Shown piece by piece: positions 22,731 through 23,057 of a stretch of 38,367 nt of DNA. The stretch's first letter is position 1. Each line of letters begins with the position of its first letter. The stretch lies in the IMG/VR virus record IMGVR_UViG_2713897190_000002; one strand, given 5' to 3'. The translations under genes and the position numbers were made by a program. The notes under the pieces are model-generated. The model had not been told where the DNA came from. It saw only the letters and a program-made list of their open reading frames with translations, and made no database searches. Source of the DNA: a virus. Lineage: Duplodnaviria; Heunggongvirae; Uroviricota; Caudoviricetes.

Positions 22731-23057
22731 TCAAGGACGTGACGGCGTAAAGATAAATTGTCTCTTCACTCCCTGACAGGGGCGATTCTTTTCAAATCGC
22801 CATTTCGCCATGGCCTTCACCACTTCATCACGAAACAAATTATGAGGCTCTGAGCGGAGAAAAACGATCCGTGTCACAGTCCCATCAGCACCAATATCGA
22901 ACTTAACCTCAACCAGCCCCTTGATATAATTTGCTGCAGCATATTCCGGATATCGTGGATACACCGTCACTAATTGCCGGGGCTCATCAGCTTTTTGCTG
23001 CGAGCATCCCACTGCCAGGACAGATAACAGAAAAAGTAGTAAAAGGCGTCTTTTCAT
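22731..23057 (-). CDS. lipoprotein with TonB C-terminal-like domain
   Basis: Start set at the internal ATG with AGGAAT upstream; lipoprotein signal MKRRLLLLFLLSVLAVGC; mature part YPRYPEYAAANYIKGLVEVKFDIGADGTVTRIVFLRSEPHNLFRDEVVKAMAKWRFE fits the TonB_C signature. Confidence 0.65.
   Translation of the reverse strand: MKRRLLLLFLLSVLAVGCSQQKADEPRQLVTVYPRYPEYAAANYIKGLVEVKFDIGADGTVTRIVFLRSEPHNLFRDEVVKAMAKWRFEKNRPCQGVKRQFIFTPSRP

Follow-up and report, generated by a model that had tools for sequence, protein, structure and literature searches.

We describe a small gene in a stretch of virus DNA of 38,367 nucleotides (nt; IMG/VR record IMGVR_UViG_2713897190_000002, Caudoviricetes), the whole of which is called the window below. 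The product of this gene combines a lipoprotein signal with a TonB C-terminal domain (TonB_C) in one protein, which is far beyond what chance would produce. The window represents a prophage similar in type to phage 21, ev017 and Perceval, and the gene, identical to CPT_21_73 of phage 21, is already known as an annotation and has been published as a moron; the novelty lies only in its possible function. We tentatively favour, at a probability a little short of even, that the protein acts as a TonB decoy, interfering in a dominant-negative manner with TonB-dependent transport. Its place in the outer membrane, its binding to TonB boxes and all of the phenotypes considered below are what we infer; the evidence itself shows the identity and fold of the domain, the lipoprotein signal, purifying selection, a conserved position and, from published data, expression in a lysogen.

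Lipoprotein signal and TonB_C domain

Translation from the ATG at 23057 gives a product of 108 amino acids (aa), MKRRLLLLFLLSVLAVGCSQQKADEPRQLVTVYPRYPEYAAANYIKGLVEVKFDIGADGTVTRIVFLRSEPHNLFRDEVVKAMAKWRFEKNRPCQGVKRQFIFTPSRP. Its N-terminus, MKRRLLLLFLLSVLAVGC followed by SQQ, consists of a basic n-region, then a hydrophobic core and then a lipobox (LAVGC, followed by S). In this layout, MKRR-LLLLFLLSVLAVG-C18-S19, the residues leading up to the cysteine agree with the lipobox pattern [LVI..][ASTVI][GAS]C, and there is no Asp at +2. The +2 rule for the sorting of lipoproteins is established, and because Ser rather than Asp, the inner-membrane retention signal, occupies that position, the protein is predicted to be sorted to the outer membrane. 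The mature protein of 91 residues comprises a tether of about 8 residues and a complete monomer-type TonB C-terminal domain, and an AlphaFold2 (AF2) model showed a helix at residues 5-16 followed by a low-confidence tether. The first-pass annotation of this DNA had proposed a lipoprotein signal with an LAVGC lipobox fused to TonB_C, preceded by a Shine-Dalgarno sequence of the gene's own. Both proposals held: the signal can be read directly from the sequence, the domain profiles are significant, and AGGA was found at 23067-23064, 6 nt before the ATG.

The Pfam search for TonB_C that had been suggested there gave PF03544 with E=7.3e-13 and 49.2 bits, above the gathering score of 24.6, and the 108-aa protein likewise scored 47.4 bits with TIGR01352 (cutoff 27.1). 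TonB C-terminal domains in the PDB were matched without gaps (best E=1.4e-14), residue n of the phage protein corresponding to TonB n+127. When the protein was compared with residues 151-230 of Escherichia coli TonB, 32 of 80 residues (40%) were identical, again with no gaps. The core residues are shared, with Y36/P37, F53, G59, F75, W86 and F103 of the phage protein equivalent to Y163/P164, F180, G186, F202, W213 and F230 of TonB, and with F88 at the position of TonB Y215; the mature protein spans the equivalent of TonB 146-235. The AF2 model, built on an alignment of 18 sequences, had a predicted local distance difference test score of 96-98 in the domain, and the order of its elements was short beta, alpha1, beta1, beta2, alpha2, beta3. 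Foldseek matched the model to 1u07_A with E=2.9e-8, to BtuB-bound TonB (2gsk_B) with a root-mean-square deviation (rmsd) of 1.0 Å and a template modelling score (TM) of 0.92, and to FhuA-bound TonB (2grx_C) with an rmsd of 0.9 Å and a TM of 0.92, the beta3 strand being present; overall, the three structures gave TM 0.90-0.92 and rmsd 0.9-1.5 Å. A fold search of BFVD returned no viral structural relative at E<=0.001.

The protein nevertheless fails the definition of TonB proper. It is 108 aa long and not about 240, its N-terminus is that of a cleavable lipoprotein in place of a membrane anchor, and it contains no proline-rich region that could serve as the spacer. The NCBIfam equivalogs for TonB (PRK10819 type) gave 66-69 bits, well short of their cutoffs (265-377), and the match was confined to profile positions of about 150-240.

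Family, selection and distribution

The gene is not restricted to close relatives of phage 21. A second phage clade (loci L089-L095; P0010, P0011 and P0015) encodes a protein of 72% identity with exactly 108 codons and the lipobox VMGC followed by T. There, too, the gene is on the late strand, where it follows Rz and precedes a Nu1 of 66% identity, and bor is missing in some members. Divergence between the clades was 1.37 at synonymous sites (dS) and 0.18 at nonsynonymous sites (dN), a dN/dS of 0.13 that indicates purifying selection, and the domain was more constrained than the signal peptide. Truncated copies occur in some genomes, one of them of 59 aa (P0035) and another without the signal peptide (P0013).

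An exhaustive HMMER search returned 2795 TonB_C proteins at E<=0.001, and among the best hits were proteins of about 107-133 aa which aligned from residue 1 and most of which had lipoboxes. Relatives with 37-49% identity and a length of about 110 aa (loci L004-L011) were found as single genes on the chromosomes of Klebsiella, Raoultella, Serratia and Erwinia, and the lipoboxes of such distant chromosomal homologues read LMGC, LLGC, ISAC, LSAC or LVGC. Of these genes, one neighbours lacZ/lacI, and a second stands between dsbB-nhaB-fadR and the minCD region. No homologues of the phage genes in the window were detected within 6 kb on either side of the chromosomal relatives, and the size and order of the neighbouring open reading frames (ORFs), which were not searched by family, suggest that neither exbBD nor genes for TonB-dependent transporters (TBDTs) are adjacent. 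The motifs YPxYAxAN, SEPxHLFD and KWRFE run through the family, in which T, Y and Y stand where TonB has R158, Q160 and R166. Since the two phage clades keep the length, the lipobox and the position of the gene at a dN/dS of 0.13, and since chromosomal relatives are lipoproteins too, we conclude from these comparisons that the phage gene is a member of a family of stand-alone TonB_C lipoproteins, as opposed to a fragment of tonB. The family appears to be uncharacterised, and one of its members has probably been captured by a phage.

A region of 651 bp containing the gene is 100% identical in phage 21, ev017 and three PhiR phages and 99.8% identical in Perceval. The existing names reflect the domain: "TonB C-terminal domain protein" in phage 21, "TonB fragment" in Perceval, and "Partial tonB-like membrane protein" or "TonB family protein" in ev017. 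The gene, called "TonB family protein" by PGAP, was present in 1225 of 5426 complete E. coli genomes (23%), including those of Nissle 1917, the type strain ATCC 11775 and extraintestinal pathogenic E. coli (ExPEC) isolates.

Genomic setting, expression and a conserved upstream block

Alignment by blastn matched window positions 1-21967 to phage 21 positions 21966-1 (reverse; 99.6% identity) and positions 21968-25034 to 42931-39865 (reverse), the right end of the phage 21 genome. The cos junction was placed where it is because the two phage 21 genome ends align there (Table 1). The first-pass annotation had put the gene between cos and bor, and the positions of both bear this out. It had also described the gene as running against the late genes and had taken this as the mark of a lysogenic-conversion gene, and here we had to correct it: the gene lies on the minus strand, as do Nu1, A, Rz, R, S and Q, and is co-directional with the late operon, so that only bor is opposed. 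In the late direction the order is S-R-Rz/Rz1, bor (reversed), a conserved non-coding block, the TonB_C gene, two or three tiny ORFs, cos and Nu1, and the arrangement and strands in the phage 21 record are identical. The idea of lysogenic conversion stands in spite of the error in orientation, because published RNA-seq data show expression in a lysogen, the absence of which had been named as grounds for giving the idea up. In the AIEC strain LF82, the Perceval copy of the gene (LF82_160, 99.8% identical) was among the morons and was expressed 8-fold over the prophage background (PMC9928086). Its log2 values were about 5-6.6 in LB, DMEM and macrophages, compared with about 2.3-3.7 for Rz, endolysin and terminase (PMC9928086). 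It did not respond to macrophages (log2 fold change 0.26), whereas bor was strongly induced in DMEM and macrophages (PMC9928086). On these published data, expression of the gene occurs while the prophage is repressed and is independent of the late genes.

Table 1. Positions in the window of the TonB_C lipoprotein gene, its parts and the surrounding features
Feature	Position	Strand	Basis
Nu1	21231-21779	minus	
cos junction, where the right and left phage 21 ends abut	21967..21968		blastn alignment to phage 21
TonB_C lipoprotein coding sequence (including stop, 22731-22733)	22731..23057	minus	ORF list; identity to phage 21 CPT_21_73; Pfam/NCBIfam/PDB matches
TonB_C domain, residues 26-108 (aligned without gaps with positions 153-230 of E. 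coli TonB; edge strand beta3 at residues 94-103)	22734..22982	minus	profiles, AF2, Foldseek
Signal peptide and lipobox, codons 1-18 (codon of lipid-modified Cys18, 23004-23006)	23004..23057	minus	read from sequence
Shine-Dalgarno sequence AGGA, 6 nt before ATG	23064..23067	minus	sequence; ribosome-binding site annotated in phage 21 record
Candidate -10 hexamer GATAAT, about 70 nt upstream of the gene	23130..23135	minus	kept in both clades within a diverged stretch (alignment columns 301-315)
Conserved structured RNA-like element, about 165-190 nt, downstream of Rz	23195..23357	minus (late)	alignment, consensus fold
bor, lipoprotein gene	23538..23831	plus	Pfam Lambda_Bor 1.1e-30; phage 21 annotation
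Rz	23863-24336	minus	
Rz1	23922-24104		
R	24321-24818	minus	
Q	26893-27291	minus	

Since the gene is expressed in the lysogen, a promoter must exist. A scan with consensus sequences detected no sigma-70 promoter and no intrinsic terminator on the strand of the gene, and the only structure downstream of it is a non-canonical hairpin at 22615-22639. The hexamer GATAAT is a candidate -10 element; no convincing -35 was found to go with it, and the promoter there is putative. Regulation by iron was considered as well, as a 10/19 match to the Fur consensus can be seen by eye near GATAAT, but it is unsupported given the log2 fold change of 0.26 in LF82.

Between the gene and bor lies a block that was about 90% identical between the two gene clades, as against 72% protein identity for the coding sequence, and its boundaries are sharp, with variable sequence on either side. 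Among phages it was detected in 432 records; lambda and HK629 are among these, and there its place is between bor and lambdap78. Of 5426 E. coli genomes, 4583 contain it, in 2 copies at the median and 11 at most, and one of these copies, in K-12 strains at about 578 kb, has a position that would fit the DLP12 prophage. None of the matches listed carried an annotation of the block, and there was no match to it in Rfam. In 145 oriented contexts, a sample biased by the many loci that were fetched via the TonB_C gene, Rz was upstream on the same strand in all but 5, and bor and the TonB_C gene were optional neighbours. The consensus fold of the late strand had -31.4 kcal/mol, compared with -15.9 for the other strand, and contained 269 G-U pairs against 5 A-C cells. 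In an alignment of 30 sequences, 98.4% of the cells paired, compared with 33-60% for slid structures. Four pairs changed on both sides, which was reached in 1 of 500 shuffles, and nearly all of the one-sided changes kept a G-U or standard pair; since the copies are closely related, this covariation is modest evidence. A further hairpin is formed by entirely different sequences at the same place across lineages. We regard the block as a candidate for a structured RNA, so far undescribed, that flanks lambdoid lysis cassettes on their 3' side. Other identities were tried and rejected. A mini-ORF of 10 codons (ATGCGC...TAA) is interrupted by TGA in lambda-type copies and has no ATG in the window; an upstream ORF of 45 aa starts inside the RNA-like hairpin, and its reading frame is not conserved; and no Rfam match identified the block as one of the small RNAs Pas, AgvB or AsxR. 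According to the Pas preprint, Pas genes adjoin Q and the holin/lysozyme genes and so apparently lie upstream of the lysis cassette, unlike the block described here.

Several accessory genes that modify the envelope are found nearby, namely bor, an NmpC-type porin gene and, in phage 21, ev017 and Perceval, sitABCD. The porin gene (25562-26704, plus strand) encodes a general porin of 380 aa (Porin_1, E=3e-150; NmpC/OmpD-like in related records) and is another envelope-modifying moron. It sits between Q and the lysis cassette, opposing the late genes, and is not present in phage 21. The sitABCD genes, for an Fe/Mn ABC importer, stand beside the tail-fibre genes in all 7 phage records that carry the TonB_C gene; in phage 21 they occupy 21967-25416, just beyond window position 1. 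Another 20 phages have sit genes without the TonB_C gene, and all of the phages concerned are closely related. The co-occurrence may reflect linkage by descent or functional compensation.

Of the small ORFs around the gene (the equivalents of CPT_21_72, 74 and 75 and ORFs on the plus strand), none had a match in Pfam or PADLOC. The equivalent of CPT_21_75 is an ORF of 60 aa (22342-22524, minus strand) that belongs to phrog_3744, a family of unknown function. It is overlapped by a plus-strand ORF (22255-22608), the C-terminal 59 aa of which match phrog_4843, likewise of unknown function, and which is followed by the hairpin at 22615-22639, a strong one of 9 bp. Elsewhere in the window, the lambda cIII thermoregulator RNA (RF01804) was matched perfectly at 36642-36700 on the plus strand with 88.5 bits, as the sole Rfam family above threshold. 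There are no tRNA genes in the window; phage 21 has tRNA-Asn and tRNA-Thr genes upstream of S.

A possible TonB decoy and comparison with known systems

The mechanism that we tentatively favour can be set out as follows. As an outer-membrane lipoprotein facing the periplasm, the protein would be unable to transduce energy, because it has neither a membrane anchor for ExbB/ExbD nor a proline-rich spacer. The lipobox and the tether of about 8 residues would keep the domain at the periplasmic face, where TonB boxes emerge; judged by its geometry, this tether is probably too short for peptidoglycan. From the inner side of the outer membrane, the domain would seize the TonB box of FhuA, BtuB, FepA, Cir and other ligand-loaded receptors by beta-augmentation on its beta3 edge strand; another possibility is that it would pair with TonB's own C-terminal domain. 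By either route the real TonB would couple less often. The protein would be supplied by low constitutive expression in the lysogen and by readthrough in the late transcript, and the lysogen would become less sensitive to T1, phi80 and H8 and to colicins and microcins of group B, for which it would pay with some loss of siderophore and B12 uptake. For a TonB C-terminal domain, the only activity on record is to capture the TonB box through beta-augmentation on beta3 (PMC11658791). When the periplasmic domain of TonB was overexpressed in E. coli, uncoupled from ExbBD, iron import through TBDTs was inhibited (Howard et al. 2001, J Bacteriol 183:5885, as cited in PMC9841981), and TonB is limiting relative to the transporters (PMC9841981). 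The fold of the phage protein matches that of receptor-bound TonB with beta3 present, and R158, Q160 and R166 are not kept.

Several points weigh against interference with TonB. The three replaced residues (R158 by T31, Q160 by Y33 and R166 by Y39) are at positions implicated in contacts with the TonB box or the receptor. That the homologues with 37-49% identity occur as single genes on chromosomes, outside phage contexts, points to a housekeeping role of the family. Strains of the Nissle 1917 and ExPEC type rely on siderophores, so strong inhibition of TonB would be costly in such carriers, and they are among the 23% of complete E. coli genomes in which the gene was found. PADLOC gave no match for the gene, and a full-text literature search found no functional study of it. 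Furthermore, the transporters outnumber TonB while expression of the gene is modest (log2 about 5-6.6, PMC9928086).

The target of any exclusion was considered from the tail tip. The C-terminal 250 aa of J were 57% identical to lambda J and 55% identical to 434 J, and no FhuA-type tips were among the matches listed for this region. The J tips of lambda and 434 bind to porins and do not depend on TonB. Self-exclusion through the phage's own receptor was dropped as unlikely for this reason, which is a further point against the decoy, and any exclusion would have phages of other kinds as its target, because the phage's tip resembles these porin-binding tips. A more specific proposal is that the phage de-energises TonB-dependent gates against heterologous TonB-dependent phages and against group B colicins and microcins, with SitABCD, a TonB-independent route of Fe/Mn uptake, offsetting the cost in iron, so that exclusion would take place at the step of energy coupling and not at the receptor. 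We regard this proposal as unlikely.

An envelope role that leaves TonB-dependent processes unaffected is possible, if somewhat doubtful. The stand-alone TonB_C lipoprotein would then bind some partner specific to it, an outer-membrane or periplasmic protein and not a TonB box, and would act in stability, vesiculation or serum and host fitness, as a generic fitness moron like Bor. The lipobox-bearing homologues of about 110 aa on the chromosomes of Klebsiella, Raoultella, Serratia and Erwinia are consistent with such a role, as is a family surface (YPxYAxAN...SEPxHLFD...KWRFE) that departs from TonB at R158, Q160 and R166, and so are the adjacency to bor and the wide occurrence in commensal and ExPEC genomes. 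However, no search suggested an alternative partner, the 8-residue tether would by its geometry not extend to peptidoglycan, and the fold is essentially that of receptor-bound TonB, for which beta-augmentation with the TonB box is the sole documented mode of binding. The location of the gene on the same strand between S-R-Rz and Nu1-A, which is kept in both clades and which the Q-antiterminated late transcript must cross because the gene is co-directional, would suit a late lytic function. The protein would modify outer-membrane receptors during virion production, which could keep progeny phages from adsorbing to debris as T5 Llp does, or it could aid in the disruption of the envelope. Such a function is improbable, since a complete Rz/Rz1 spanin pair is already present and the J tip is closest to the porin-binding, TonB-independent tips of lambda and 434. 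In addition, transcripts of the gene are present in the uninduced lysogen, where the late genes next to it are at background (PMC9928086).

Two further explanations follow from existing labels. The names "TonB fragment" and "partial tonB-like" suggest that a tonB gene was captured and survives as a remnant without function, and truncated copies do exist (P0035 and P0013), but a dN/dS of 0.13 between clades with nearly saturated synonymous sites makes this very improbable. The conserved lipoprotein signal peptide, which tonB does not have, the constant length of 108 aa, the gene's own Shine-Dalgarno sequence and its expression also speak against a remnant, and its closest relatives are other lipoproteins and not tonB. 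Among the PHROGs, the protein matched 34172, a TonB-like family, and 1267, which is labelled "Rz-like spanin" (E=5e-43). A lipoprotein encoded near the lysis cassette might be taken for an outer-membrane spanin or an Rz-like lysis protein on this basis. We find that hardly credible, because the fold is a globular TonB_C domain and not a short proline-rich lipoprotein, the gene is separated from Rz by bor and about 800 bp, and Rz1 is encoded separately at 23922-24104. The globular fold and the separate Rz/Rz1 pair mean that the label of PHROG 1267 is almost certainly wrong, a misannotation that has been propagated.

If the decoy model is true, almost a quarter of complete E. coli genomes carry a prophage brake on TonB-dependent uptake. 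This would bear on siderophore-antibiotic conjugates, on sensitivity to colicins and microcins and on phage therapy with TonB-dependent phages, and mimicry of the energy transducer would be a new mechanism of superinfection exclusion. Should the model fail, there is still an uncharacterised family of such stand-alone TonB_C lipoproteins in Enterobacterales, which the protein defines.

Compared with the C-terminal domain of TonB itself (E. coli TonB about 150-239; 1U07, 1XX3, 2GSK and 2GRX), the phage protein shares the Pfam and TIGRFAM domain, the order of the elements and the backbone to within 0.9-1.5 Å rmsd, but it has a lipoprotein signal in place of the N-terminal transmembrane anchor and the proline-rich spacer, lacks the last 4 residues, and has T, Y and Y in place of R158, Q160 and R166. 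The chromosomal TonB_C lipoproteins resemble it over its full length, including the signal peptide, the lipobox and the motifs SEPxHLFD and KWRFE, and differ in being chromosomal and outside lambdoid prophages. The engineered periplasmic TonB fragments (Howard et al. 2001) are C-terminal domains uncoupled from ExbB/ExbD, like the phage protein. They were artificial, overexpressed, without a lipid anchor and of native TonB sequence, whereas the phage gene is natural and expressed at a low level, and its product, 40% identical to TonB, is predicted to be tethered to the outer membrane.

Bor/Iss is a small outer-membrane lipoprotein, as the product of the TonB_C gene is predicted to be, and is likewise encoded by a moron that is expressed in lysogens; Bor has an unrelated fold (Lambda_Bor, PF06291), is encoded on the opposite strand and, unlike the TonB_C gene, is induced in DMEM and macrophages. 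Cor (of phi80, N15, HK022 and T1) and Llp (of T5) are small outer-membrane lipoproteins of phages and are thought to act from the periplasm on FhuA, a TonB-dependent transporter. The analogy to them that had been drawn at the outset holds as a functional likeness only: a Pfam scan of the phage protein to E=10 returned TonB_C alone, with no relation in sequence or fold to Cor or Llp. Where Cor-like genes were looked for after the tail fibres (92-385 and 398-676), only PHROGs of unknown function were matched. Cor and Llp block the receptor of their own phage, whereas the J tip encoded in the window is closest to those of lambda and 434, and the mechanism proposed here would be mimicry of TonB in contrast to the plugging of a receptor.

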